DNA from: Ignavibacteriota bacterium
GTDB taxonomy: Bacteria > Bacteroidota > Ignavibacteria > UBA10030 > UBA6906
Direction of reading: 5' to 3'
Length of the DNA: 64,000 bases
Assembly (NCBI GenBank): GCA_963843525.1
Contig: CAWJKM010000002.1
Span: 209,913 to 273,912, forward strand
The position numbers and the translations under genes were made by a program. The notes below the pieces were generated by a model. That model was given only the letters and a program-made list of their open reading frames with translations, was not told the DNA's origin and did no database searches. Below, one piece after another: positions 3,936 to 61,058 of the stretch (position 1 is the stretch's first letter; each line of letters starts with the position of its first letter).

Positions 3936-4601
3936 ATGTTCATAGGTCATTATGCGGTGGCTCTGGCCGCGAAGAAGGCCACCCCGAAAACATCTCTCGG
4001 GCTGTTGTTCATTGCGGCACAATTCCTTGATTTGCTCTGGCCCCTCCTGGTCGTTTTCGGTGTGGAGCACGTCGGCATCGCACCGGCGACCGATCCATTC
4101 TTACGGCTGAATTTCCTCAGCTATCCTTTCTCCCACAGCTTGTTCGGCGCTTCCGTCTGGGCACTCGCGCTCGGAGGGCTCGTGGTTCTCTTCCGGAGGG
4201 ATATCGCTGAAGGGCTCATCATCGCAGGCTGTGTGATCAGCCATTGGATTCTGGACTTCTTTACGCATCGGCCGGACCTTCCCCTCACGTTTGAAGACCG
4301 GACAAAAGTGGGGCTGGGCCTATGGAATTCTGTTGCATGGACCATGCTGGTAGAGGTGGCGTTGTTTGCCGGCGGCGTGTACCTGTATCTTCAGGTCACA
4401 AAGGCGAAGGACAAGATCGGCGTGTACAGTTTCTGGGGCCTGATCGGCATTCTCTTCGTTATCTACGTCGCCAACATTTTCGGTCCCCCTCCCACCGATG
4501 CATCCCAGATCGGACTCCTTGCGAACGCAGCATGGGTATTTGTCGTGTGGGCGTTTTGGACGGACAGGCATCGCGCGGTAAAGGAGAAGAGTAGGAAGTA
4601 A
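3936..4601 (+). CDS. membrane-bound metal-dependent hydrolase-like protein (YdjM/DUF457-like)
   Basis: Multi-pass membrane protein starting MFIGHYAVALA with His-rich short loops (HWILDFFTHRPD). Confidence 0.4.
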   Translation: MFIGHYAVALAAKKATPKTSLGLLFIAAQFLDLLWPLLVVFGVEHVGIAPATDPFLRLNFLSYPFSHSLFGASVWALALGGLVVLFRRDIAEGLIIAGCVISHWILDFFTHRPDLPLTFEDRTKVGLGLWNSVAWTMLVEVALFAGGVYLYLQVTKAKDKIGVYSFWGLIGILFVIYVANIFGPPPTDASQIGLLANAAWVFVVWAFWTDRHRAVKEKSRK

Positions 4602-4674
4602 GAAGTAAGAAGTAAGAAGAAGGAAGTATGCGGTATGCAGTAGGCAGTAGGCAGAAAGAAGACAGACAGATGCG
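4591..4674 (+). repeat. degenerate heptanucleotide tandem repeat (TANGNAG-type, about 12 units) immediately 3' of the stop codon
   Basis: gtaagaa g|taagaag|taagaag|aaggaag|tatgcgg|tatgcag|taggcag|taggcag|aaagaag|acagaca|gatgcgg; 7-nt periodicity read by eye. Confidence 0.7.
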
Positions 4675-6433: not shown

Positions 6434-6483
6434 CGATGAAGTAAGCCGTATGCCGTAGGCAGTATGCAGATGGCGATAGCAGC
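6434..6483 (+). repeat. heptanucleotide tandem repeat (TANGNAG-type) in the divergent promoter region
   Basis: gatgaag|taagccg|tatgccg|taggcag|tatgcag|atggcga|tagcagc. Confidence 0.6.
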
Positions 6484-21921: not shown

Positions 21922-22011
21922 ACACCCCGCCAGGATGTTAGTTGAAAGGAAAGTCGAGGAAGCGGTGCCCGGTGACCCGTCGCAAGAAACATACAGCGCA
22001 TCTCTCCCGCC

Positions 22012-22100
22012 CACAGCTTTCTGCATACTGCCTACAGCTTTCTGCATACTGCCTACAGCTTACTGCTTACTTTCTTCTTCCTTCTTCATACTTCATACTC
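22012..22100 (-). repeat. heptanucleotide tandem repeat (TANGNAG-type on the minus strand) between the rhomboid and AKR genes
   Basis: Reverse complement: tatgaag|tatgaag|aaggaag|aagaaag|taagcag|taagctg|taggcag|tatgcag|aaagctg|taggcag|tatgcag|aaagctg. Confidence 0.7.
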
Positions 22101-23631: not shown

Positions 23632-23883
23632 TTCGCCTTCGCTTTCGTCCTTACTGCGTAAATTGTGTCAATCGGCCGCCAAAACCCCATGACCCGGCTC
23701 CGTTAATGACATAAATCCGGTGAATGTGCTAATCCCTGTGCGGGGAATCATTTGGAATCCAAGAGGTCCAGAGTGGCGAAACTTGGGGACTGTGGGCAAC
23801 TCAAATGGTAAGAGAAAAAGAGGAAAGAATAAACGCTTTCTGGGGACTTTCTTGACACAGAATTCTAATAATCCCCTAAATCT

Positions 23884-23940
23884 TCCGTTTTCCCCCCCTC
23901 TCCCCCTCTCCCCCTCCCCTCATCTCCCTTCTCCCCCCCG
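23884..23940 (+). repeat. C-rich low-complexity tract with about 7-nt periodicity (ctctccc-type heptads)
   Basis: ccccccctctccccctctcccctcccctcatctcccttctccccccc. Confidence 0.5.
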
Positions 23941-24028
23941 ACAATTCTTCATGAAAATTTAACTTCCCATCGTCCTCTTCATTTCGTATACTTTGATCCC
24001 GATGTAGGTAAGACACCCGGAGGCGAAA

Positions 24029-34122: not shown

Positions 34123-34470
34123 TTGGCATGGCTTGTCAAAACGCCGGCATTTCACGCAAGAGAGAGGGACCGCATGACAAAACAGCGGAAGGACCATGTT
34201 GTCGGAGTCGCGTGGTATCGTGCAGAACAATGGTCGGCCCTGAGAGAGTTCTGCGAGGATAGCGAAGAGATAGAATCCACACACGCAGCCTGGAAACGAG
34301 GAGCAGAAAAAGCGATGCGTGCTCTTCGCAGGGAAGGGCAGGCAGTGGAGCCGGTCGATTTCGATCTGGAGGAGTTCAAGGTGTGGTGCGCGGTAAACGG
34401 GACGAAACCGATCGGCGCGTCCCGGTCCGAGTTTACTGCACAGAAGCTGCGCGAAACCCGGGCGAAATGA
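34123..34470 (+). CDS. hypothetical protein
   Basis: ORF only; charged or helical sequence; the start may be the internal MTKQRK. Confidence 0.3.
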   Translation: MAWLVKTPAFHARERDRMTKQRKDHVVGVAWYRAEQWSALREFCEDSEEIESTHAAWKRGAEKAMRALRREGQAVEPVDFDLEEFKVWCAVNGTKPIGASRSEFTAQKLRETRAK

Positions 34471-34517
34471 CCCCACTCGGCATGGCCCCAGTTGGCTGAA
34501 GTGCAATAGGGAAAACT

Positions 34518-34770
34518 ATGGCAGGCTAGGCAACCAGAAATTCCCTCTGCGCAAGGCAAAAACATGGCAGGCTAGGCAACCAGAAATTCCCTCTGCGCAA
34601 AGCAAAATCATGGCAGCCTAGGCAACCAGAAATTCCCCCTGCGCAAGGCAAAAACATGGCAGCCTAGGCAACCAGAAATTCCCTCTGCGCAAAGCAAAAT
34701 CATGGCAGCCTAGGCAACCAGAAATTCCCTCTGCGCAAAGCAAAATCATGGCAGCCTAGGCAACCAGAGG
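34518..34770. repeat. 46-bp direct tandem repeat, 5.5 copies (atggcagSctaggcaaccagaaattccctctgcgcaaRgcaaaaWc)
   Basis: Units begin at 34518, 34564, 34610, 34656, 34702 and 34748 (partial); there are no spacers, so this is not a CRISPR array. Confidence 0.9.
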
Positions 34771-35218: not shown

Positions 35219-38071
35219 ATGACACCCCCGCGATCTCGCACAATCATTCTCGTCCAGTTCCTGCTCCTTGCCGCTGGTTGCGCCTCTGCGTTTGAGAAGC
35301 AATCCGACGGCGTCTTGTTTGAACTCACGAAACACAGACCAGCTGATCCACAATGGATGAAGGTCCAGGTGTGCACAGAAGACATCGTGCGGATCATCGC
35401 TTCGCCTGAGAAAGCATTCTCCAAACGTCCGAGTCTGATGGTCGAGAAAACGGCGAGGGAACCAGTGCCATGGACAGTGACCAGCCGCGACGGATTTGTC
35501 GATATCTCCACACCACGGATCACCGTGCGCGTTCAGCCGGAGAACGGGTCGGTGACGTTCTACGACTCGACCGGGCGGCTCCTGCTCCATGAAAAAGAGA
35601 GCGGCGGCAAGAGTATCAGCGCCGCAGATGTGATGGGAGAGAAGACGTTCCACATCCAGCAGCTGTTCGACTCCCCGCCGGATGAGGCGTTCTATGGTCT
35701 GGGGGGCAATCAAAACTCCATCATGAACTACAAGGGACATGACGTCGATCTGTACCAGCATAACATGGTTGAGGTGGTTCCCTTTCTCGTCTCGAACCGG
35801 AACTACGGAATCCTCTGGGACAACAACTCCCACATGAAACTTGGCGATATCAGGGAGTTTCAGCCCCTGTCCGTCCTGAGGCTCTTTGGGTCAGACAGTG
35901 TGGAAGGCGGCCTCACCGCTGAGTACTTCAGAGACTCCACGTTCAACTCTCTTTTTACTTCCCGCCGCGAATCAACGATCGACCATGAGTATACGGATGT
36001 CCACGATTCCCTCCCCGACGGATACCAGCAACATGTTGCCGCTGTTCGGTGGAGCGGCACAATCGCTGCCCGAACGACAGGGACGTATACGTTCAGGCTC
36101 TGTGGCAGCGGATACATCAAAATGTGGCTCGATGGCAAACTCGTTGCAGACTTCTGGCGTCAGAACTGGCTCCCGTGGACACATTTCCCTCGCCTCGCGA
36201 TGGAGGCAGGAAAAGCCTGCACCATCAAAATCGAGTGGATCCCTACCGGCGGTGCCATCAGCGTGAACTGCCTCGGCCCGGCAGACGACCTCTACAAGAA
36301 CAGTCTTTCCCTCTACTCGGAAGTGGCCGATCAGATCGACTACTATTTTGTCAGAGGAGACAACCTCGATCAGGTCATTCATGGGTACCGGCAGCTTACC
36401 GGCAAGGCACCAATGATGCCCCAATGGGCATTGGGTCTATGGCAGTCGCGCGAGCATTACGCATCGCAGGATGAAATTCTCTCTGTTGTCGGCGAATTCC
36501 GGAAGCGCAGCATCCCTCTCGATAACATTGTCCAGGACTGGTTCTATTGGAAAGAGGACAAATGGGGTGACCATGAGTTTGATCCGACACGGTATCCGGA
36601 CCCTGCAGCGATGATCCGAACGCTCCACGACGATCTGCACACTCACATCATGATTTCCGTCTGGGCGAAGTTCTATGTCGGGACCAGAAACTTCGAAGAG
36701 TTCCGGAAGAACGGGTGGCTGTACATGCGGAACGTCGAGAAGGGGCAGCGCGATTGGGTCGGCCCCGGGTATGTCTCGACGTTTTACGATCCGTATTCGG
36801 AGGGCGCGCGCGATCTTTTTTGGAAACAGGTGAACGAGAAGCTGTTCAGCAAAGGAATCGATGCATGGTGGTTGGATTGTACAGAACCCGACATTCAATC
36901 CAATCTCTCCCGGGAGGAGACAATCCTTCGCCAGGGCCCGACCGCTCTGGGATCGGCATCGCGCTACCTGAATTCCTTTTCCCTCATGCAGACGCGTGCG
37001 GTCTACGAAGGTCAACGCACGGTCAACCCGAATCAACGCGTGTTCATCCTGACCCGGTCGGCATTTGCCGGAACGCAACGCTATGCAGCGGCGACGTGGA
37101 GCGGCGACATCGCGGCCCGATGGTACGACATGAAGGCGCAAATTTCGTCAGGCTTGAATTTCACGCTCGCGGGTATTCCGTACTGGACCATGGACATCGG
37201 CGGGTTTGCTGTCGAAGCGCGGTATGAGCATCCGAACGCAGCAGACCTCGACGAATGGCGCGAACTGAACACGCGCTGGTTCCAATTCGGATCGTTCTGC
37301 CCCCTCTTCCGGGTGCACGGACAGTTTCCCTATCGCGAGATGTTCAATGTAGCCCCGGAAAACCACCCTGCATACCAGGCAATGCTTGCGTACGACCGGT
37401 TGCGATACCGGCTGATGCCGTATCTCTACTCCCTGGCGGGCATGGTCACGCGGAACGACTACACCATCATGCGCGCGCTCGTCATGGATTTCGGGAAGGA
37501 TACAAACGTCCTGGGCATCGGCGATCAGTTCATGTTCGGTCCCGCATTGCTTGTGAACCCGGTGACCGAATACAAAGCAAGAAGCCGGTCCGTCTATCTT
37601 CCCGGGACCGGCTGGTACGAGCTCCGGACGGGGAAACACATCGCCGGCGGACAGTCCATCACGGCCGAAGCTCCGTATTCCGATATCCCGCTCTTTGTGA
37701 AAGAGGGATCGATTATTCCATGCGGACCCGACATCCAGTACACGGCGCAAAAACCTGCCGACCCGATCCGGCTGTTCATCTACACCGGAGGCGACGGCGC
37801 ATTCACCCTCTATGAAGACGAAGGGGTGAATTACAACTACGAGAAGGGGTTGTTCTCGACGATTCCGCTCACGTACAGTGAGAAGAACCACATGCTGACG
37901 ATCGGGACGAGACAGGGGGAATTCCCGGGAATGCTTCGGAAAAGATCCTTCGATATCGTCTGGATTAGCGGGAGCAGGCCGTCCGGACTTGACTTCGCGT
38001 CCGCTCCGGATGCTACGATTGCCTATGATGGGACGCCGCAGTCTGTAGAAATGAAGTTCAAGTCGAGATAG
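35219..38071 (+). CDS. GH31 family glycoside hydrolase (alpha-glucosidase/alpha-xylosidase-like) with a PA14 insertion
   Basis: Signal peptide; PA14-like GTYTFRLCGSGYIKMWLDGKLV; GH31 catalytic region GIDAWWLDCTEPD; conserved GH31 C-terminal beta-sandwich. Confidence 0.85.
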   Translation: MTPPRSRTIILVQFLLLAAGCASAFEKQSDGVLFELTKHRPADPQWMKVQVCTEDIVRIIASPEKAFSKRPSLMVEKTAREPVPWTVTSRDGFVDISTPRITVRVQPENGSVTFYDSTGRLLLHEKESGGKSISAADVMGEKTFHIQQLFDSPPDEAFYGLGGNQNSIMNYKGHDVDLYQHNMVEVVPFLVSNRNYGILWDNNSHMKLGDIREFQPLSVLRLFGSDSVEGGLTAEYFRDSTFNSLFTSRRESTIDHEYTDVHDSLPDGYQQHVAAVRWSGTIAARTTGTYTFRLCGSGYIKMWLDGKLVADFWRQNWLPWTHFPRLAMEAGKACTIKIEWIPTGGAISVNCLGPADDLYKNSLSLYSEVADQIDYYFVRGDNLDQVIHGYRQLTGKAPMMPQWALGLWQSREHYASQDEILSVVGEFRKRSIPLDNIVQDWFYWKEDKWGDHEFDPTRYPDPAAMIRTLHDDLHTHIMISVWAKFYVGTRNFEEFRKNGWLYMRNVEKGQRDWVGPGYVSTFYDPYSEGARDLFWKQVNEKLFSKGIDAWWLDCTEPDIQSNLSREETILRQGPTALGSASRYLNSFSLMQTRAVYEGQRTVNPNQRVFILTRSAFAGTQRYAAATWSGDIAARWYDMKAQISSGLNFTLAGIPYWTMDIGGFAVEARYEHPNAADLDEWRELNTRWFQFGSFCPLFRVHGQFPYREMFNVAPENHPAYQAMLAYDRLRYRLMPYLYSLAGMVTRNDYTIMRALVMDFGKDTNVLGIGDQFMFGPALLVNPVTEYKARSRSVYLPGTGWYELRTGKHIAGGQSITAEAPYSDIPLFVKEGSIIPCGPDIQYTAQKPADPIRLFIYTGGDGAFTLYEDEGVNYNYEKGLFSTIPLTYSEKNHMLTIGTRQGEFPGMLRKRSFDIVWISGSRPSGLDFASAPDATIAYDGTPQSVEMKFKSR

Positions 38072-51403: not shown

Positions 51404-51495
51404 GCTCTCTCCCTTTCCCCCCGTCCCCAGTCCCCAAGTCTCCCAGTCCCCAAGTCCCCAAGTCTCCCACTCTCCCCCTCAGTCCCTCGCCCTTC
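51404..51495. repeat. C-rich 7-8-nt periodic repeat (gtcccca / agtctccca units) at the helicase-N / methyltransferase junction
   Basis: gtcccca gtcccca agtctccca gtcccca agtcccca agtctccca ... Confidence 0.6.
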
Positions 51496-52471
51496 GTATG
51501 ATCTCGTTTGTCAAATCCAGTATCGGCTGCGTGCTCCGGTAATTTTCTTCGAGCTTCACGATCTTGCATTCCGTGAATTGATCCGGGAATTCGAGAATAT
51601 TCCGTACCGTCGCGCCGCGGAAGCTGTAGATCGACTGTGCATCGTCTCCCACGACCATGAGGTTGCCATGATGTGAGGCGAGGAGCCGGACAATCTCGGC
51701 TTGAATCAGGTTCGTGTCCTGATATTCATCCACCATGATATATTTGTAGCGCTCACACACCGTCGTCCTGACCGACTCCACATCGCGGAGCAGTTTCCGG
51801 AGATACAGAAGGAGATCGTCGTAGTCCATCAGGTTATGCTGGGACTTGTACTCTTCGAACGCCTTCTGGAGGACGAGGATCTCTTCGAGATAATTCTCGT
51901 AATGGGGGTATTCCTCCTGGAGAATCTCACGCACGGGGCGGACGGTGTTGACGGCTTTGGAGAAGATGTCGTAGAGCGTCTGTTTGCGCGGGAAGCGTTT
52001 CTCCTTCGTGTCGAACTTGAAACGTGTCCGGAGAAGGTTCACGACGTCTTCTGCGTCGCCCTGATCGAGGATACTGAACGACGAATCGAATCCGATGAGC
52101 GACGCGTACTGGCGGAGGAGGAGGTTCGCAAAAGAGTGGAACGTCCCGCCGGCGACGTTTTCGCATCGGGCATCGAGGAGCATGGAGGCGCGGCGGAGCA
52201 TTTCCTGCGCCGCCCGCCGGGTAAACGTCAGGAGCAGAATCGCTTCCGGTTTAACTCCGAGTTCCACAAGATACGCAACCCGGTAGACGATGGTCCTGGT
52301 TTTCCCCGTTCCCGCACCGGCGATAATCAGGTGCGGACCATTGACAGATGACACAGCTTCGTACTGGGCCGGATTGAGCTGGTTCCGGTAGTCGATCTGA
52401 AACGTGTGTTGACCGGGAGACTCCGCAGCCGGTTCGGGGTACGGGGTCTTTTTGAGAAGGTATTTTTTCAT
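51479..52471 (-). CDS. UvrD/PcrA-family helicase, N-terminal half (domains 1A/1B, motifs Q, I-IV)
   Basis: LNPAQYEAV, Walker A AGAGTGKT, Walker B MVDEYQDTN, VGDDAQSIYSFRGA, NYRST. The ORF ends inside the repeat tract a few residues after motif IV. Confidence 0.8.
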   Translation of the reverse strand: MKKYLLKKTPYPEPAAESPGQHTFQIDYRNQLNPAQYEAVSSVNGPHLIIAGAGTGKTRTIVYRVAYLVELGVKPEAILLLTFTRRAAQEMLRRASMLLDARCENVAGGTFHSFANLLLRQYASLIGFDSSFSILDQGDAEDVVNLLRTRFKFDTKEKRFPRKQTLYDIFSKAVNTVRPVREILQEEYPHYENYLEEILVLQKAFEEYKSQHNLMDYDDLLLYLRKLLRDVESVRTTVCERYKYIMVDEYQDTNLIQAEIVRLLASHHGNLMVVGDDAQSIYSFRGATVRNILEFPDQFTECKIVKLEENYRSTQPILDLTNEIIRRARD

Positions 52472-53603: not shown

Positions 53604-54461
53604 TCAGCCGCCGACCTGGATTCCGGTGAGAATCACAAACACCGACCAGAGGATCCAGAGAGCGAAGACGAGGACCAGGATCTTGTTCAGATCTTTCCGG
53701 AAAAGGCGGGAGAGCCCGATGCTGACGACGACAAGGTCCCAGATGGTGAAGAAATTGACCTTGCTCAGTGCGACATCCAGCTTATTCTGCACAGAGAACC
53801 CGTTGAGGACAAAGAGCGCGAGATTGGGACCTGCGTGGAGGTGGTCGAAGGCGATCGCCATGATGGTTGTGACGATCGATTCCAGGCTCCCGATGAAGAA
53901 TGTGAGACCGACAATTTCCACCACTTTCATATAGGGTGCTGATACCTTCATCACCGTCCTTCCGAGCAGCCAGTAGACCAGGCAGACAAGGAAGAGGGCG
54001 ATGGGGGTCACGATCAGGAGCGCGCCGCCTGTGGTGATCATCATCCAGGGTGAAGCGGGGTCGGTGAACTTTTCCATCTGCTCGCGTGCCTGGTCGGCCT
54101 GTTCGGGAGTCATTTTCCCGCTCTGGATCGACTCCTGGAACCGCTGTTCCGTGGATTCGCGTATCTGGGTTCGTAACTGGTCGGCAAGCGACGGGTTCCG
54201 GAGCATCATCTGTGACATCCCGAACGAAACAACGATGAAGATGATGAGAGGAATGACCCAGTTCGAAGGAGTGGAAGCGGTATCCCGGACGTTGTCGAAG
54301 AGCTCCCCCGGTGAAGCGAAGACATTGGTCAGTTTTTCTGTGAAGGACATCGGCTTGACGGTGGATTCGCCTGTTGGCGTCGTGGTAGATAGGTCATCCA
54401 TGGATGGCTCCTTTGATGGTTGGGAACAGCCCAACGTAGCGAAAACCCCTTTGAGAATCAA
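53604..54461 (-). CDS. Yip1-like multi-pass membrane protein
   Basis: Hydrophilic N-terminal third followed by five or more TM helices. Confidence 0.4.
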   Translation of the reverse strand: MILKGVFATLGCSQPSKEPSMDDLSTTTPTGESTVKPMSFTEKLTNVFASPGELFDNVRDTASTPSNWVIPLIIFIVVSFGMSQMMLRNPSLADQLRTQIRESTEQRFQESIQSGKMTPEQADQAREQMEKFTDPASPWMMITTGGALLIVTPIALFLVCLVYWLLGRTVMKVSAPYMKVVEIVGLTFFIGSLESIVTTIMAIAFDHLHAGPNLALFVLNGFSVQNKLDVALSKVNFFTIWDLVVVSIGLSRLFRKDLNKILVLVFALWILWSVFVILTGIQVGG

Positions 54462-54497
54462 TGGGTTTTAGAGACGACATTTTTGACGTCTCCCCAC

Positions 54498-54526
54498 TTG
54501 ACAAGACGACAAATTTGTCGTATCGT
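54498..54526 (+). promoter_or_regulatory. sigma70-like promoter (TTGACA-17-TATCGT) with a perfect 14-bp palindrome CGACAAATTTGTCG in the spacer, upstream of dinB
   Basis: ttgaca at 54498-54503, 17-nt spacer, tatcgt at 54521-54526; palindrome at 54507-54520; read directly. Confidence 0.5.
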
Positions 54527-54556
54527 ACCTGTGAACTCACCCCCTGCCCCTCTCTT

Positions 54557-55714
54557 ATGACTCTCTTCATCCATCTTGATCTCGATTGCTTCTTCGCCGC
54601 CGTCGAGACCGTCCTGCATCCCGAACTTCGCGGTGTTCCGCTCTGTGTCGGGGGGCAGCGGGGAGGACGGGGGATTGTGACCTGTCCGAATTACGAGGCG
54701 CGCGCGTATGGTGTCCGGACGGCCATGTCGGTGCGTGCGGCGGAACAGCTCCTGCCGCGGGGCGCCGTGTTCCTCCGGGGGAACCATCACCTGTATGGTG
54801 AATATTCACGGCGTGTCATGACGGTTCTGGAATCGTTTACGCCCGAAGTGCGACAACGGAGCATCGATGAAGCGCTGATGGAAGTCGGGGGATGCCTTCA
54901 CTTCTGGGGCCACGATCCGGCCCGCATGGGGCAGGCGATCAAGGACCGGGTCCGTACGGAAACGGGCCTGACGATCTCCGCCGGTGTTGCGCCCAACCCC
55001 CTGTGCGCGAAGATCGCAGCCGGATGGCGTAAACCCGACGGTCTCGTGGTGATCCCTCATGGCGAAGTACAGGAATTCCTTGCGCCGTTGCCGGTGGACG
55101 TTGTGCCCGGAATCGGCAAAAAGACCGCGCCGCGTCTTGCCATGCACGGCATCCGGACAGTGAGTGATCTGATTGCCCGGCGGCCGCCCCGCGAGAGCTG
55201 GCTCGGTTCGCTGCTCCGGGGATTGCTTGATGAAACGGGAAGTTCAGGACGGCACGACGCTGATGCTGTTGAGCACTCGATCTCGCGCGACAGGACATTC
55301 GGTCAGGATACTGCCGACCGGGAACAGATCGAATCGACGCTCTTCCTGCTGACCGAGCGTTGCTGCAAAACCCTCCGGGTCGAGGGGCTCGCGGCATCGA
55401 CGGTGACCCTGAAGGTACGTTTCGCGGATTTCACCACCGTGCAGAAGCAGGAAACGCTGCCCGCGGCGGTGGTGAACGAAGAGCAGATCTTCGCGGCCGT
55501 CCTGCTGCTGCTGGGCGACCTTCTTCCGCCCTGGCGGTTTGTGCGTCTTGTCGGGGTGAAGGTGTCCCATCTTTCCCCGCTGGAAGGACAGCAACTCACA
55601 CTCGATGCCGGGACGTCGGAACGACTGCATGAGCTGCACCGCCGGGTGGATGCGCTGCAGGAACGGTTTGGAGAAGCGAGCGTGCGGTGGGGAAGAGGGG
55701 TGGGGACATTTTAA
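54557..55714 (+). CDS. dinB: DNA polymerase IV (Y-family)
   Basis: Y-family motifs (HLDLDCFFAAVE, SIDEA...) and length about 385 aa. Start taken at MTLFIHLD; the track ORF begins at 54461. Confidence 0.85.
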   Translation: MTLFIHLDLDCFFAAVETVLHPELRGVPLCVGGQRGGRGIVTCPNYEARAYGVRTAMSVRAAEQLLPRGAVFLRGNHHLYGEYSRRVMTVLESFTPEVRQRSIDEALMEVGGCLHFWGHDPARMGQAIKDRVRTETGLTISAGVAPNPLCAKIAAGWRKPDGLVVIPHGEVQEFLAPLPVDVVPGIGKKTAPRLAMHGIRTVSDLIARRPPRESWLGSLLRGLLDETGSSGRHDADAVEHSISRDRTFGQDTADREQIESTLFLLTERCCKTLRVEGLAASTVTLKVRFADFTTVQKQETLPAAVVNEEQIFAAVLLLLGDLLPPWRFVRLVGVKVSHLSPLEGQQLTLDAGTSERLHELHRRVDALQERFGEASVRWGRGVGTF

Positions 55715-55752
55715 ATTTTAGATTTTAGAATTTAGATTTTAGATTTTAGACT
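55710..55752 (+). repeat. TTTAGAT heptanucleotide tandem repeat (about 6 copies) immediately after the dinB stop
   Basis: tttaaat|tttagat|tttagaa|tttagat|tttagat|tttagac. Confidence 0.8.
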
Positions 55753-55929
55753 GGTTCAGGCGAGGTCATAGGGCACACCGTCATAAGCATGGGCTTCAGG
55801 CGCTCTGATTTAGGCGCGCCGTCATTGCCACGACCTTCAGGTCGTGGGCAAATTTCAAGAGGCGCTCTCTAACCAGTGAGGGGTTTTAACCCCCCTCAGT
55901 GGTTCTATCGACCAGTGTCCGATTGACTT

Positions 55930-56994
55930 TTGTCAATTGGTCTTTATCGGCGGCCATCTCCTCTGGAAGAGGGGAAGAGTGGTATCCCAATCCCCCGGCA
56001 ACGTGAAGAACAACTCGCGCTTCGATTTGCCGGACTTACGCTTGTTCACGAGAATCGAATATTATTGTGGACGGGTCTGAGGAGAAACCAGCGCACACTC
56101 GTCGGATCAAGGGAAGGGCGGATGCTTTCCGGTATTGCACAAAATATCTTCCCGTACGTCGGTGCGTGGGCACGGCATGGCGTCTTCATCGCGCTTGCGT
56201 CGGGGGATGCAGCGGCAAGAGGCGGACTGAATGACGGCGACGAGGCGGCGCTCTTCGGCGTGGCGCGGGTGGAGGTGCCGCCGTACGGAGCGGTGCCGCG
56301 TTCTTCACGCATCACCGCGGATGCCGTTGATGTGGTGATTGAAGATGAGACGCTGGTCTACCGCTTCCCGTACCATTACCCGGACCGCGCGCACCGGGGG
56401 GAAATGAACGCCGACTTCCTGAATCCGCAGCGTTTTCTCGATCGCGTGGCGCCGGTGCTTGACCTGTTCGGAGAACGGGCGCGATTGGTGATGCTGCGGC
56501 CGGCACCGCTCTACAGGACGGAGGAAATCGCGTTTGAGGAGATCCTGGAGCGTCTCGACCGGTTTCTCGCGCACCTGCCGGCGGCATACCGGTATGTGCT
56601 TGAACCGCCCGCTCCCATGGTTCTCCGGCGCGAGTATTTTGATTGTCTTCACGCACGGGGTGTGGTGCATATGTTCAGTGAGGGGGAAGCGCTCTTTCGA
56701 GCGTTGCCATCGGTGGGGGAACAGCTTTTCATCCCCGGGGCGGTCGCCCCACCGTTCTGCGTCGTGCGGAGCGGTTTTCCCGGGGAGATCCCCGGCATGC
56801 CGCATCGGCGGTTTGATGGAGCGCTCCGGAGACAGGGATGGTACGATGCGGTGTGCCGGTGTCTTGTTGAGCATCTGCCGGTGTATCTGTTTGTTGACGA
56901 CGGGACGAACCCTCTCGACTCGCTGATGGCGTTGATGGAAATGCTGAACGAGGACCTGGCGAAACGGTCGGTGCTGCGGCAGAACGCAGCCTAG
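55930..56994 (+). CDS. divergent DUF72-like protein (paralog of 52505..53518)
   Basis: The central and C-terminal regions align with the other DUF72 protein (ADFLNPQRFLDRVAPVLDLFGERARLVMLRPAPLY... versus PDFLNARLFEDAFLRPLDALHSKRGAIIFEFSTFY...). The N-terminus is degenerate and the start is uncertain. Confidence 0.5.
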   Translation: MSIGLYRRPSPLEEGKSGIPIPRQREEQLALRFAGLTLVHENRILLWTGLRRNQRTLVGSREGRMLSGIAQNIFPYVGAWARHGVFIALASGDAAARGGLNDGDEAALFGVARVEVPPYGAVPRSSRITADAVDVVIEDETLVYRFPYHYPDRAHRGEMNADFLNPQRFLDRVAPVLDLFGERARLVMLRPAPLYRTEEIAFEEILERLDRFLAHLPAAYRYVLEPPAPMVLRREYFDCLHARGVVHMFSEGEALFRALPSVGEQLFIPGAVAPPFCVVRSGFPGEIPGMPHRRFDGALRRQGWYDAVCRCLVEHLPVYLFVDDGTNPLDSLMALMEMLNEDLAKRSVLRQNAA

Positions 56995-57002
56995 AAATTT
57001 TA

Positions 57003-57365
57003 CTGTAGGTCGGGTCGCTGACCCGACCAATTCAGACGGGAGACACTGCATGGCCGGCGGGACGGGTCTGGCGACCCGTCCTACAAATGGACACTCTGTA
57101 GGTCGGGTCGCTGACCCGACCAATTCAGACGGGAGACACTGCGTAGCCGGCGGGACGGGTCTGGCGACCCGTCCTACAAATGGGCACTCTGTAGGTCGGG
57201 TCGCTGACCCGACCATCTCAGACGGGAGACACTGCGTAGCCGGCGGGACGGGTCTGGCGACCCGTCCTACAAATGGACACTCTGTAGGTCGGGTCGCTGA
57301 CCCGACCATCTCAGACGGGAGACACTGCGTAGCCGGCGGGACGGGTCTGGCGACCCGTCCTACAG
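57003..57365. repeat. 93-bp tandem repeat, about 3.9 copies, each unit carrying two perfect 9-bp-stem hairpins (REP/BIME-like)
   Basis: Units begin at 57003, 57096, 57189 and 57283. Hairpins are GGTCGGGTCgctGACCCGACC and GGACGGGTCtggcGACCCGTCC. The array sits directly 5' of a RAYT-like transposase remnant. Confidence 0.85.
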
Positions 57366-57389
57366 ATCTTCGTACGTACCCATTGACAA

Positions 57390-57622
57390 ACATACTTTCT
57401 TCGTTCAAGAAGTACACTGCTCGACGAGCAAATAAGCTGCTCAGCCGTCAGGGAGCATTCTGGCAAGATGAATCATACGACCATCTCATCCGCGCCGGGG
57501 AAGAGCTTGAACGGACGATGTGGTACGTAGTGAACAATCCCGTGAAAGCGAAACTCGCAAAGGAATGGCAGGACTGGGAATACACGTACGTGAAGCCAGA
57601 CCTTCTGAATTTCGCTTTTTGA
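57390..57622 (+). pseudogene. truncated REP-associated tyrosine transposase (RAYT, IS200-like Y1 transposase): C-terminal ~80 aa only
   Basis: ...FKKYTARRANKLLSRQGAFWQDESYDHLIRAGEELERTMWYVVNNPVKAKLAKEWQDWEYTYV matches the RAYT C-terminus (Y..NPV catalytic Tyr region). The HUH N-terminal half is absent, and the upstream part of the track ORF (57050-57389) is just a translation of the REP array. Confidence 0.65.
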
Positions 57623-57644
57623 ATTTGGAGTTGGATTTTGGCCT

Positions 57645-58349
57645 ATGACTTCCTCCGTCTCTCTTCGCCCCTCCACCGCAGTGCCATATGCGGCGCTCGT
57701 CAGTCAGTTCCATGCCGAGCCGCACGGCAAGCTCTATTGCCTGCATGGCGACGCGCTGGCGTTCCGCGTCGCCCTTTCGGCCGCATCGCAGGCAATCCTG
57801 CGCGGGATGACGGTCGCGCTGGTGGACGGAGCCAACAGGTTTGATGCGTATTTCATCGCGGAATTTGCGCGCCACGTCGAGATGCGGGGCGGGCCGCCGC
57901 CGGGCGAATTGCTCAACCGGATCTTCGTGTCGCGCGCCTTCACCTGCTACCAGATGGAGGCGGTGGTGACGGAACGGCTTCCAAAATTTCTCGACAGAAC
58001 GGGCGCCAGGGTCGCGGTGCTTTTTGGACCGCTCGATACGTTCTACGACGACCAGGCCCCGTTCTTCGAAGTGAAAGCGGGCGTCGGACGGATGATCGAG
58101 GCACTCCAACGGTTGCGGGAGCACCAGATCGGCGTGCTTGTCGCTTCGCAGGATGTGCGCCTTGCCTCCGGGGAACGGAGCAGCCTCTTTCCGCGCTTCG
58201 CCGCGGCGATGGACGGTGTCTATACGGTGGAGCAACAGGAGGGCAAGCTCCTGATGCATGCTCAGGCTGCTCCGGTCATGAAACCGCCGCGGCGGGTCAA
58301 TAACCACACACCGCTCCGGATTCATGAGAGGAGTACCGGAAAGCTCTGA
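57645..58349 (+). CDS. RecA-fold protein without a Walker A motif (ImuA/SulA-like)
   Basis: RecA-like strand/helix pattern (...GMTVALVDGANRFD..., LNRIFVSRAFTCYQMEAVV, ARVAVLFGPLD) with no GxxxxGK[ST]. Its stop overlaps the next start (TGATG). Confidence 0.4.
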   Translation: MTSSVSLRPSTAVPYAALVSQFHAEPHGKLYCLHGDALAFRVALSAASQAILRGMTVALVDGANRFDAYFIAEFARHVEMRGGPPPGELLNRIFVSRAFTCYQMEAVVTERLPKFLDRTGARVAVLFGPLDTFYDDQAPFFEVKAGVGRMIEALQRLREHQIGVLVASQDVRLASGERSSLFPRFAAAMDGVYTVEQQEGKLLMHAQAAPVMKPPRRVNNHTPLRIHERSTGKL

Positions 58350-58666
58350 TGACACAAGACGTCGAACGACGAGGAGACGCTATGGGACGTACAGTGCCGA
58401 CATTCACGATGGTGCTCCAGCAGGAGATCGATAGCTGGGGAAAATTCCGGCGTGCGCTGCGGAAGGAAGACCAGGATGCGATGGACGATCTCTTCCGGTC
58501 CGCCCAGTTGCAGCTTGCCGGCAGTGCGTATGCGGCACGGCCGATTCCGTTCGAAAGCATCGCCATGGCCATGCTGATCGCGCAGCAGCGCCGCATCAGT
58601 GAGCTTGAACGCCGGCTGTCAAAAGAGGAACAGCGCGTGAGCCTTGTTACCACAGATCGTCCCTGA
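58349..58666 (+). CDS. small hypothetical protein (105 aa) in an operon between the RecA-fold protein and PolB
   Basis: Translationally coupled ORF; predicted C-terminal coiled-coil (AQQRRISELERRLSKEEQR). Confidence 0.4.
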   Translation: MTQDVERRGDAMGRTVPTFTMVLQQEIDSWGKFRRALRKEDQDAMDDLFRSAQLQLAGSAYAARPIPFESIAMAMLIAQQRRISELERRLSKEEQRVSLVTTDRP

Positions 58667-58727
58667 GCGAAGGACATGGCTCCATGGTTGATGATCAACC
58701 GACAAGTGAATTGAAGATGGTGGTAGC

Positions 58728-61058
58728 ATGACCGGCTGGCTCTTTGATCTCTATCCTTCTCCGCGCGGCATCACGATCTGGCTGATGGACAATGACGGAC
58801 GCAAATACCGCTGCACCCACCCGTTCGTCCCCTCGTTCTATCTGCATGTCGATCGCGCGGGCGCGGAACGTGCGGCGAAGATTGTCGAACGCTTCCCCTT
58901 CCGGGTGTCGTTCCACGCCGACCGCCGGCGGGAGATCTATACGGATGAGGAGTGGGAGGTCTACCGCGTCGATGTGCACGATACGTTGCACTTCAAACAG
59001 GTGGTCCAGGCGCTCGAACGGCATTTCCCGCATTTCGTGTTCTTCGATTCCGATATTGCGGTCCAACAGCTGTTCCTCTACACCAGCGGATTGTTCCCGC
59101 TCGCGTTCGGCGACTACACCCTTGATGAGGAGGGGACGCTGCTCCGGTGGGATCTCCGTGACGTGTACGACGCGATGGACTATACGCTTCCTCCGCTGGT
59201 GATGATGACGCTGAAGAACAAACCCGATTTCGTCTCGACGAAACACCGGAAGAGCTTTCAGCTGGAGGTGACCTACGACGGATCGACGTACGCGCTGGAG
59301 CACCATGACCCGGCGGAGATCCTGCACGCCCTCGAGCGTCACCTCACCCGGTGCGATCCGGACATCATCATGACGGAGCATGGCGATGCGATTCTCCTCC
59401 CCCTTCTGACGCGTCTTTCGGCGGAGGAGAAGGTGCCGGTGTCGTTCAACCGTGACGTTTCGGTGGGATACAACACGTCCAAAGCGTCGAGCTATTTCTC
59501 GTACGGGAAGATCGTGCATAAGGAAGGCGCGTTTGAACTCGCCGGGCGCTGGCACCTCGATCTGGAAAACTCCTTCATGATGAGCGAAGCGAGCCTGGAC
59601 GGCGTGGTGGAGATTGCGCGGCTGACACAGCTGCCTGTCCAGCACCAGTCACGCGCGACCATCGGCTCCGCCCTCTCTTCAATGCAGCTCTCCTGGGCGG
59701 AGCGCCACGGCTATCTCATCCCCGCGAAGAAGCGGGAGCCGGAGGAATTCAAGACCGCGAGCACGCTGCTGCTCGCCGACCGCGGCGGCGTGATTTTTCA
59801 GCCGCTCCTGGGGTTCCATGAGGAAGTGGCGGAACTCGACTTCGTCTCGATGTATCCGACGATCATGGTGGAACACAACGTATCGCCCGAAACGGTCAAC
59901 TGCCGGTGCTGCCACAACGCACGCGTTCCCGAGCTCGGGTACACGATCTGCGAACGCAGGGAGGGGATCGTCCCTGCAACGCTCCGGACGGTTGTCCGGC
60001 GACGAGGCATATATAAGAAAAAGAAGAAAGCGCTCAAAGCGGCGAACGATCCCTCCTGGATGCTGTTCGACCGACGTCAGAATGCCCTGAAATGGATGCT
60101 GGTCACCTGCTTCGGCTACCTCGGCTACAAGAATGCGCGGTTCGGCCGCATCGAGGCGCACGAAACAGTCAATGCGTTTTCCCGCGATGCAATCCTCCAC
60201 GCGAAGGAAGCAGCGGAAGCGCAGGGGTATCAGTTCATCCATGCCATCGTCGACTGCATGTGGATCAAGAAGCCGGGAGCGACACAGGCCGACTATGAAC
60301 GGCTGGCCGTGCAGATCAGTGAAGAGGTTGGCATCGACCTGTCGCTCGAAGGGATCTACTCCTGGATCCTCTTCCCTTCCTCGAAAATCGATCCCCTTCT
60401 GCCGACCGCGAATCGCTATGTCGGCTGGTACAAAAACAACGAAATCAAGATCCGCGGCATCGAAGTGCGCAGAAGGGATACGCCGGTCTTTATCAAACGC
60501 ATGCAGGGAGAGCTGCTGAAACTGATGGGTGAGGCGAAAAGCGTCAGCGGCATCGAAACCATGGTCCCGCTGCTTGTGGCTAAGGCAGGGGAGTTTGTGG
60601 GGATACTTCGCAAGGGCAGGGCGGATCCGCTGGAACTGGTGATCCACTGCCATCTCCTGCGTGAACCAGAAGAGTATACCACCAATACCGTCAATGCTTC
60701 CGCCGCCAAAGCCCTTGCAGAGGCGGGCATTCATCTTGCCGCGGGGGAAATGGTGGACTATGTCGTCGTGGATGCCACAGGGAAAAGGCGTCCCGAAAAG
60801 GCCCGCCCGATGGCACTGTATGCGCTGGAGGATGGCTACGACATTGAATTCTATACGAAACTTGCTCTGAAAGCGATAGAAACGCTCTTGCTGCCGTTCG
60901 GTTACCCGGTGTCCCGTCTTGCGCAAATCTTTCATGTGAATGCGGGAAAGCCCGAACGCGGGAGAAAACGCACCGATACCGGCCAGCTGTCGCTGTTTGA
61001 ACTCCACGATTCCATCACCCAGAAGATCGCTTTCGACAAGGAACAGTTCGCACCGTGA
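58728..61058 (+). CDS. family-B DNA polymerase (Pol II-like) with a degenerate 3'-5' exonuclease motif I and an altered motif C
   Basis: Motif A LDFVSMYPTIM; motif B region ALKWMLVTCFGYLGYKN; motif C region EAQGYQFIHAIVDCMW (YGDTDS replaced by HAIVDC). The Exo I DxE region aligns to VMMTLKNK. Confidence 0.8.
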   Translation: MTGWLFDLYPSPRGITIWLMDNDGRKYRCTHPFVPSFYLHVDRAGAERAAKIVERFPFRVSFHADRRREIYTDEEWEVYRVDVHDTLHFKQVVQALERHFPHFVFFDSDIAVQQLFLYTSGLFPLAFGDYTLDEEGTLLRWDLRDVYDAMDYTLPPLVMMTLKNKPDFVSTKHRKSFQLEVTYDGSTYALEHHDPAEILHALERHLTRCDPDIIMTEHGDAILLPLLTRLSAEEKVPVSFNRDVSVGYNTSKASSYFSYGKIVHKEGAFELAGRWHLDLENSFMMSEASLDGVVEIARLTQLPVQHQSRATIGSALSSMQLSWAERHGYLIPAKKREPEEFKTASTLLLADRGGVIFQPLLGFHEEVAELDFVSMYPTIMVEHNVSPETVNCRCCHNARVPELGYTICERREGIVPATLRTVVRRRGIYKKKKKALKAANDPSWMLFDRRQNALKWMLVTCFGYLGYKNARFGRIEAHETVNAFSRDAILHAKEAAEAQGYQFIHAIVDCMWIKKPGATQADYERLAVQISEEVGIDLSLEGIYSWILFPSSKIDPLLPTANRYVGWYKNNEIKIRGIEVRRRDTPVFIKRMQGELLKLMGEAKSVSGIETMVPLLVAKAGEFVGILRKGRADPLELVIHCHLLREPEEYTTNTVNASAAKALAEAGIHLAAGEMVDYVVVDATGKRRPEKARPMALYALEDGYDIEFYTKLALKAIETLLLPFGYPVSRLAQIFHVNAGKPERGRKRTDTGQLSLFELHDSITQKIAFDKEQFAP

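Follow-up and report, generated by a model that had tools for sequence, protein, structure and literature searches.

In a genome of an Ignavibacteriota bacterium (GTDB lineage Bacteria; Bacteroidota; Ignavibacteria; UBA10030; UBA6906; GenBank assembly GCA_963843525.1), a stretch of 64,000 nucleotides of contig CAWJKM010000002.1 (positions 209,913 to 273,912 of the forward strand; hereafter the window) holds, between two protein-coding genes, an array of repetitive extragenic palindromes (REPs) at 57003-57364 which directly abuts the 3' remnant of a gene for a REP-associated tyrosine transposase (RAYT, also TnpA-REP) at 57365-57622 on the + strand. In their anatomy, the repeats are GTAG-tagged REPs paired with their heads facing outward, as in REPINs (REP doublets forming hairpins), with the doublets in tandem and joined by linkers of fixed length.

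The array, which as a whole is assigned to no strand, has a period of 93 bp with 3.9 copies and 97% matches (Tandem Repeats Finder, score 675) and consists of four 83-bp REPINs at 57003-57085, 57096-57178, 57189-57271 and 57282-57364, connected by 10-bp linkers AATGG(A/G)CACT. Each unit starts with CTGTAGG and contains a type 1 REP (GTAGGTCGGGTCGCTGACCCGACC, to be read as GTAGG-TCGGGTC-gct-GACCCGA-CC, with the hairpin arms GTAGGTCGGGTC-GCT-GACCCGACC) on the + strand, at 57005-57028, 57098-57121, 57191-57214 and 57284-57307. After a 34-nt spacer follows, inverted with respect to the former, a type 2 REP (GGACGGGTC-TGGC-GACCCGTCC-TAC on the + strand, GTAGGACGGGTC-GCCA-GACCCGTCC on the - strand; in full GTAGGACGGGTCGCCAGACCCGTCC, to be read as GTAGG-ACGGGTC-gcca-GACCCGT-CC) at 57060-57084, 57153-57177, 57246-57270 and 57339-57363 of the - strand. 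Type 1 occurs in four exact copies on the + strand versus none in shuffles of the window, and type 2 in four copies on the - strand versus a shuffle mean of 0.16. Both types possess perfect 9-bp stems, loops of 3 or 4 nt and, at the foot of the stem, GTAG followed by a G, and are therewith short palindromes with a stable, G+C-rich hairpin and the GTAG foot typical of REPs, while the outward-facing heads on opposite strands make each unit an inverted doublet as is typical of REPINs.

Four tandem 93-bp units with two perfect 9-bp-stem palindromes each had been described in a first-pass annotation made from the sequence alone, and both stems are exactly as written there. Folding, which the same annotation had proposed as a check, returned both hairpins as single-stranded DNA, at -10.6 kcal/mol for type 1 (z = -5.1) and -11.1 kcal/mol for type 2 (z = -4.0), while the entire 93-bp unit folds into a long inter-REP hairpin at -24.7 kcal/mol (z = -4.4), with the two-hairpin state at -21.7 kcal/mol. 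The two types differ by a compensated stem swap (T:A to A:T), by which each small hairpin stays perfect and the long inter-REP hairpin gains a mismatch. The five positions that vary among the four units are all located in the 34-nt spacer or the 10-nt linker, with none in the eight hairpins; units 3 and 4 are identical, and the spacer variant AATT is common to units 1 and 2. Together with the covariation across genomes described below, the absence of substitutions in the eight local hairpins suggests that the hairpins are under selection.

A scan of one genome per species with the pattern GTAGGWCGGGTC-N3-4-GACCCGWCC recovered at least 120 stretches (L001-L120; loci and proteins outside the window are cited by our own numbers) in about 55 assemblies, versus about 2-20 expected by chance according to our own estimate. 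Among the matches listed, most were inverted doublets with 5-60-nt spacers, and the two W positions were complementary in 141 of the 143 matches read back, a strong covariation that speaks for the small hairpin. None of the matches listed came from the genome of the window. The exact 24-nt type 1 hairpin was present, again among the matches listed, in Ignavibacteriota/Bacteroidota metagenome-assembled genomes (MAGs; L020, L023, L063, L097 and L117), in L023 as a tandem pair with a 110-bp period between open reading frames (ORFs) and in L117, likewise between ORFs, preceded by a diverged partial copy of the same unit. In one other Ignavibacteriota MAG (L023 twice, L117) the 24-mer is therewith both intergenic and multi-copy. 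No match to the REP pattern was found in the viral contigs scanned. The matches listed were labelled Planctomycetota, Verrucomicrobiota, Ignavibacteriota/Bacteroidota, Acidobacteriota, Myxococcota, Chloroflexota and, in one case, Actinomycetota. As REP classes are usually species- or genus-specific, such breadth points to a RAYT-REP pair that has spread horizontally or is strongly constrained, provided that it is not inflated by errors in MAG binning.

The transposase remnant and the intragenic REP loop

The tail downstream of the array (...TYPLTNILSSFKKYTARRANKLLSRQGAFWQDESYDHLIRAGEELERTMWYVVNNPVKAKLAKEWQDWEYTYVKPDLL) belongs to the RAYT family, as had been proposed in the first-pass annotation for the end of this ORF. 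NCBIfam NF047646 (REP-associated tyrosine transposase) recovers the translation of 57365-57619 at model positions 72-145 of 146 (E=3.9e-15), with a score of 56 bits that lies below the 80-bit whole-protein cut-off, as is expected when about half a domain is covered; full-length relatives, scoring 52-72 bits, likewise stay below 80. With a hidden Markov model (HMM) derived from nine full-length relatives, the tail aligns at positions 149-232 of 232 (E=1.9e-40), and a weak match extends to residues 93-140 of E. coli TnpA-REP (PDB 4er8; E=0.026). In an exhaustive HMMER search, the number of relatives was 5,230 with a cut-off of E<=1e-3 and 840 with one of E<=1e-10; the full-length proteins among them comprise 210-265 aa and match the tail always in their last approximately 80 residues.

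The tail carries the motifs FWQDESYDHLIR ... WYVVNNPV and FWQ-x-ESYDH with the catalytic Tyr intact, while the HUH (His-hydrophobic-His) motif, IMPNHVH in the relatives and there located about 25-100 residues upstream of the start of the window homology, is absent together with everything before it. The absence of the HUH part had been noted in the first-pass annotation as well, as the lack of a half; the missing share is larger, about 140 of about 220-240 codons or approximately 60-65% of the gene. TnpA-REP subclass 2.4, defined with the motifs NH[IFV]H, WQ and YIxNNP and found in Cyanobacteria, Bacteroidetes and various phyla (Quentin et al., 2018, BMC Genomics 19:475, PMC6006769), equals RAYT group 4 (Bertels et al., 2017, PMC5581495). 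As judged by the sequence motifs FWQ/YVVNNP and by its relatives, the tail is a fragment of this subclass and, since the HUH motif is missing, a gene fragment and not a functional member. Its last five to six codons, together with the stop (57605-57622), probably stem from the flank. The GC content of the tail is 0.50 overall and 0.58 at third codon positions (GC3), versus 0.59-0.63 and 0.67-0.76 in the neighbouring genes. Between two strains, one substitution, a non-synonymous one, distinguishes the tails, which is too little to judge purifying selection. The residues 'RTY' before LTNIL, considered as a remnant of the 3' end of an older REP (CCGTCCTAC), were dismissed as such, as hairpin-free relatives likewise have a conserved aromatic residue two positions ahead of (L/V)T.

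Hypervariability marks the loop that separates the HUH strand from the next helix (...LT-x-IL-x-S-x-KK-x-TA...); it has 9-137 residues among the top relatives and in a subset of relatives consists of translated REP DNA. REPs inserted in tnpA-REP genes between HuH and Y with the reading frame undisturbed have been described for subclass 2.4 (PMC6006769), so that a REPIN inside a RAYT ORF is no new finding. Perfect 7-10-bp hairpins of lineage-specific sequence are located in the loop of about 12 of 79 metagenomic relatives, the remainder having short, hairpin-free loops; in-frame loop REPs were seen in L106, L080/L127, L128, L133, L137, L157, L177, L191, P0013, P0016, P0017 and P0021. The intact 239-codon ORF of L106, a Bacteroidota MAG, reads ...IMPNHVHMVLEL-VGRVADPT...GRDGVPSY-ALTNILTSLKKYTALRAN..., with the loop DNA GTAGGTCGGGTCGCCGACCCGACC ... 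GGACGGGACGGCGTCCCGTCCTAC in frame, one base off the type 1 REP of the window and in the same reading frame. In L080, which stems from the MAG of L106, one REP is located in the loop and another downstream, and a tandem REPIN cluster with linkers of 16 nt closely precedes the gene. This REP class is linked to RAYT, as the array abuts the tail in the window and the one-base variant is found inside and upstream of the intact L106 and L080 genes. In the window, homology to the family begins 9 nt past the last REPIN, which places the cut in the very loop that normally houses the intragenic REP. As a separate observation, the full-length RAYT ORF of L080 (1041-1730; also L127) has retained the HUH motif, while its catalytic Tyr is changed to Cys (FWQDESCDHVV).

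A broken arrangement is present also in L124, where positions 1-1406 have the order [RAYT tail][REPIN][RAYT tail][REPIN][RAYT N-half with HUH][REPIN], where a Cas4-like ORF continues the last REPIN in frame. It seems that RAYT halves have been shuffled at REPINs there, although in a short k-mer assembly a misassembly is possible. Proteins that consist of a tail alone, with an N-terminus of translated REP, were seen repeatedly among the relatives (P0008, P0018 and P0020, for instance). No solitary tails were found in 80 metagenomic loci, which is uninformative as these had been selected for full-length matches. In L125 and L126 (about 180-300), an in-frame TGA separates the HUH and Tyr halves, with the same sequence in two independent metagenome samples; it may represent a nonsense pseudogene or a site of read-through or recoding.

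The insertion site and its neighbourhood

The block at 57003-57620 (+ strand) is absent from syntenic relatives. Upstream, an intact gene with weak DUF72 likeness (55930-56994, + strand) ends, and downstream an intact gene for a 234-aa protein without family match (57645-58349, + strand), followed by genes for DUF8156 and a family-B DNA polymerase, starts, each at the position seen in L208. In related MAGs, the neighbourhood comprises Yip1 (- strand), dinB, a gene for a weakly DUF72-like protein of about 290 aa, the 234-aa gene, DUF8156 and the family-B polymerase. Four syntenic loci (L207-L210, from at least three relatives) have a spacer of 48-310 bp at this site with no RAYT and none of these REPs. 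The spacer of L208/L209, with a neighbouring protein 82% identical to that of the window, is 48 bp long (TGAACATTTTAGAATTTAGATTTT...ATG).

Aligned at the junction, L208 reads ...GCAGCC-TGA-ACATTTTA-GAATTTAGATTTT...ATG and the window ...GCAGCC-TAG-AAATTTTA-[CTGTAGG...array...tail...CCTTCT]-GAATTTCGCTTTTTGAATTTGG...ATG. As the upstream stop and the downstream start are positioned as in L208, both host genes are intact, and the empty site in the syntenic relatives indicates that the array and tail of about 0.6 kb are an insertion in the lineage of the window. The left end of the extra DNA (ATTTTA|CTGTAGG) is the exact terminus of a REPIN, while the right end, because the flank is AT-rich, is ambiguous between 57604 (...CCTTCT|GAATTT) and 57620; in one reading it falls where, in relatives such as L124, the RAYT stop overlaps with the CT|GTAG of a REP located downstream. 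The tail is also present in a strain of 99.67% identity over 6.6 kb, the short-read contig of which stops 45 bp after the array.

Several further features of the surroundings were observed. The gene string from the dinB-like Y-family polymerase to the family-B DNA polymerase (54461-61058) is syntenic in L121 and L207-L210 and may constitute a damage-tolerance cassette. In other lineages, namely in L207 (4868-4965) and L210 (4690-4810), the equivalent spacer holds different palindromes, for example CCCCTCTCTTACAAAGAGAGGGG and CCCCCTTCTCATTATAAGAGAAGGGGG in L207; hairpin elements seem to have landed in this spacer repeatedly. Six ATTTTAG heptamers extend from the stop codon of the dinB-like gene onward (55708-55750). 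Farther away in the window are a 46-bp tandem repeat (34512-34768; 5.6 copies, 95% identity), apparently intergenic between ORFs that end at 34470 and start at 35219; a 21-bp unit, GCCTACAGCTTTCTGCATACT, three times in tandem at 22009-22071 with related inverted copies at two sites 15-17 kb away (4590-4665 and 6439-6479); and C-rich simple repeats of the TCCCC and GTCCCCAA types (23881-23947 and 51408-51503).

Origin of the array and the gene fragment

We consider it probable that the locus is the relic of a REP/RAYT system (REPtron), composed of four REPINs and the last approximately 80 codons of a subclass-2.4 gene, which forms an insertion of about 0.6 kb between intact genes and which would have originated by recombination at an intragenic REPIN. 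Cleavage and rejoining of single-stranded DNA by a RAYT is known only for E. coli TnpA-REP (PMC3479197, PMC8266576), and in analogy to this enzyme each GTAG-headed REP hairpin would be recognised on single-stranded DNA by the RAYT and cut and rejoined by its HUH/Tyr site, with two inverted REPs as the mobilisable unit, the REPIN. The stub, which has kept the Tyr helix and lost the metal-binding HUH half, is predicted to be incapable of catalysis, and the REPINs could be mobile today only with the help of an intact RAYT encoded at another place of the genome. The ancestral RAYT would have resembled that of L080, with an in-frame REP or REPIN in the loop and REPIN clusters upstream; an exchange of the loop REPIN with a REPIN in the same orientation, be it by homologous recombination or by RAYT-mediated cut-and-join, would delete exactly the N-terminal 140 or so codons and leave [REPINs]-[C-terminal tail]. 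An L080-like order [upstream REPIN array]-[N-half]-[loop REPIN]-[tail] would hence be converted into the [array]-[tail] of the window by a single deletion. The four near-identical units might subsequently have arisen by unequal recombination or slippage. The arrangement of L124, as it reads in that contig, shows that breaks at the loop REPIN do happen. In the first-pass annotation, the array had been thought to have replaced the 5' half of the transposase gene. This reading is supported by the RAYT C-terminus without HUH part that stands beside the array, with the refinements that the block as a whole is an insertion at a site that is empty in relatives, its 5' part having been lost either there or before arrival, and that the break lies in the loop. 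Located just 3' of the upstream stop, the array could incidentally have a putative role as an mRNA 3' hairpin or terminator-like structure.

A number of observations weigh against such an origin. The recombination step is itself only inferred, as no recombination intermediate was found and none of the four syntenic loci has a full-length RAYT at the site. With the family HMM, no other RAYT piece, N-terminal or intact, was recovered anywhere in the 64-kb window, and neither REP has a further copy in the window or in the 6.6 kb of the 99.7%-identical strain (L121), so that these stretches lend no support to a living population of REPINs in this genome. The family alignment shows the tail without frameshift or stop and with all family-invariant residues kept, which is unexpected in an old pseudogene and implies either that the truncation is recent or that the stub has been kept for some reason. 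The count of four units rests on one assembly, the contig of the strain MAG breaking 45 bp after the array. Finally, of the models named in the first-pass annotation for a check of the tail, the dedicated RAYT model recovered it, while Pfam Y1_Tnp gave no match even at E<=10; as full-length relatives reach only 17-22 bits with the latter versus a cut-off of 23, this failure reflects the model, not the sequence.

A different course of events, in which REPIN and RAYT tail came as one piece, has to be considered. A RAYT acting in trans, for which the loop REPIN and a REP closely behind the gene would both be cleavage sites, would have excised the segment between them, composed of the REPIN and the 3' third of the gene, and inserted it into the spacer without target duplication, with expansion of the array before or afterwards. 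The empty site in the relatives and the unchanged flanking genes are consistent with such an arrival, as are the left boundary exactly at the CT-GTAGG of the first REPIN and the plausible right boundary ...CCTTCT|GAATTT, which matches the L124-type CT|GTAG over the RAYT stop, although the AT-rich sequence at the right junction permits more than one alignment. A target-site duplication is not apparent, in keeping with the behaviour of Y1 transposases, and one event would take the place of an arrival and a deletion; the relatives, however, are about 82% identical in the neighbouring protein, and precise loss in their lineages is possible. L124 has [tail][REPIN] twice in tandem, but on a short k-mer-assembled contig, and a second composite copy was found nowhere. 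As, in addition, transposition of whole REPtrons reportedly does not occur (PMC6006769) and the multi-copy array upstream is more directly accounted for if a REPtron like that of L080 underwent a deletion in situ, we regard arrival as one piece as possible but unlikely. Its wider form, by which the intragenic REP of subclass 2.4 turns the 3' part of the transposase gene into cargo of its own REP system and [REPIN + Tyr-half] modules, excised and inserted or else duplicated as a unit, are scattered to intergenic sites, the window holding one of them instead of a gene decayed in place, we put forward as a doubtful and at best tentative proposal.

Two further explanations were considered. A mechanical ORF of 190 aa (57050-57622, + strand) spans most of the array and, as 93 bp equal 31 codons, extends without change of frame into the RAYT tail. 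It could be a functional truncated RAYT with an N-terminal 31-residue repeat, for instance one that attaches to REP DNA and acts on an intact RAYT as an inhibitor or regulator, a role known of truncated transposases in other systems. Apart from the open frame through exactly 31 codons per unit, the type 1 REP is read as VGRVADPT in the same frame as the in-frame REPIN of L106 and thus as in intact relatives; the tail keeps all family-invariant residues including Tyr, and intact proteins tolerate REP insertions in the loop (PMC6006769). On the other hand, the ATG at 57050 is located inside the first repeat, a start without conserved context, and along the array the other strand is just as open, so that openness is a property of the repeat; the chance that a GC-rich 93-bp unit is in frame and stop-free is not small (5-10% by a rough estimate). 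Neither the translated repeat part nor the 370-aa antisense ORF (56305-57417) has a Pfam match, which makes the earlier view of both as artefacts reasonable, the only strain-level difference in the tail is non-synonymous, and the GC3 of the tail is below that of neighbouring genes. The 190-aa ORF is thus probably not a functional gene, and a role as truncated RAYT appears improbable. As a further explanation, the array could be an unrelated structural or regulatory repeat, such as a terminator stack or a protein-binding or CRISPR-like array, located beside the fragment by chance, or else an assembly artefact. In line with this, the window has no further copies, the array is directly behind a gene stop, where hairpins can be terminators or stabilisers, and the short-read assembly of the same strain breaks there. 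The same 24-nt hairpin, however, forms intergenic doublets and tandem clusters in L020, L023, L063, L097 and L117, its one-base variant is found inside and beside the intact RAYT genes of L106 and L080, and the matches of the scan exceed the estimated chance number. The lack of unique spacers excludes a CRISPR array; a promoter and terminator scan gave nothing above chance and no T-tract behind the REP stems, while Rfam had no match near gathering score, with far sub-threshold matches of the long hairpin such as MIR918 (41 versus 268 bits). Differences between the units at five positions are contrary to a simple artefact of collapsed or duplicated reads, and we regard an unrelated repeat or an artefact as highly improbable.

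Relation to described REP systems

The locus most resembles the REPtrons of subclass 2.4 (PMC6006769; PMC5581495), with which it shares the motifs WQ and Y[IV]xNNP in the tail and N-H-[IV]-H in the relatives, long GTAG-headed REP hairpins with G:C pairs at the foot, in-frame REPs between the HUH and Tyr motifs and a fitting taxonomic range (Bacteroidetes and various phyla). It differs in that the gene of the window is cut in the loop, with only the Tyr half present and the REPIN there amplified to four tandem copies, while the published description is of in-frame insertions, not of truncation at them.

The E. coli REPtron and its bacterial interspersed mosaic elements (BIMEs; Ton-Hoang et al., 2012; Messing et al., 2012, PMC3479197, structure 4er8) likewise have alternating inverted REPs with linkers of fixed length in tandem, a GTAG guide tetranucleotide at the foot of the hairpin and a link to a Y1 HUH transposase gene, but the E. 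coli gene is intact, with no REP inside, its RAYT belongs to subclass 2.2, and the REPs and linkers of the window are unrelated to the Y and Z REPs. The label 'REP/BIME-like' of the first-pass annotation is accordingly apt for the REP/REPIN anatomy and the alternating layout, whereas the array, which would work like a BIME or a REPIN cluster, is no true enterobacterial BIME (with Y, Z1 and Z2 REPs): the architecture, with 34- and 10-nt linkers, is alike, the sequences are unrelated and the RAYT is of another subclass. Shared with the REPINs of Pseudomonas fluorescens (Bertels and Rainey, 2011, PMC3116915) are the inverted doublet that can be folded as one long hairpin, the tandem clusters and the position of REPINs beside the cognate RAYT; those systems, however, are of RAYT groups 2/3 with copy numbers in the hundreds per genome, while the array of the window has zero copies elsewhere in the 64 kb. 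Intragenic GTAG REPs have been surveyed (Di Nocera et al., 2013, PMC3733652) and, similarly, occur as dimers or groups inside ORFs, where they contribute 20-30 residues with the frame unbroken, and as dimers reiterated in tandem with flanking DNA; the REP sequence of the window is not listed there, and no GTAG repeats were reported in Bacteroidetes. An autonomous IS200/IS605 element is not present, the gene being truncated and single-copy in the window and a right-end hairpin being absent.

REPs, REPINs, RAYTs and REPs inside subclass-2.4 genes are all already known, and the locus is of an ordinary, described kind of repeat. What it adds is the truncation at an intragenic REP, the tandem amplification there and the comparison with the empty site, in a genome of Ignavibacteriota/Bacteroidota type, a group little covered in REP surveys, where a REPIN cluster is now seen together with a RAYT remnant. 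In annotation, neither the 190-aa ORF nor the antisense ORF of 370 aa ought to be listed as a gene, and the tail is best flagged as a RAYT pseudogene. For the family, the in-frame REP site of subclass-2.4 RAYT genes would also be a place of gene breakage, and if [REPIN + tail] does move as a unit, a domesticated transposase would fragment and disperse its own gene.

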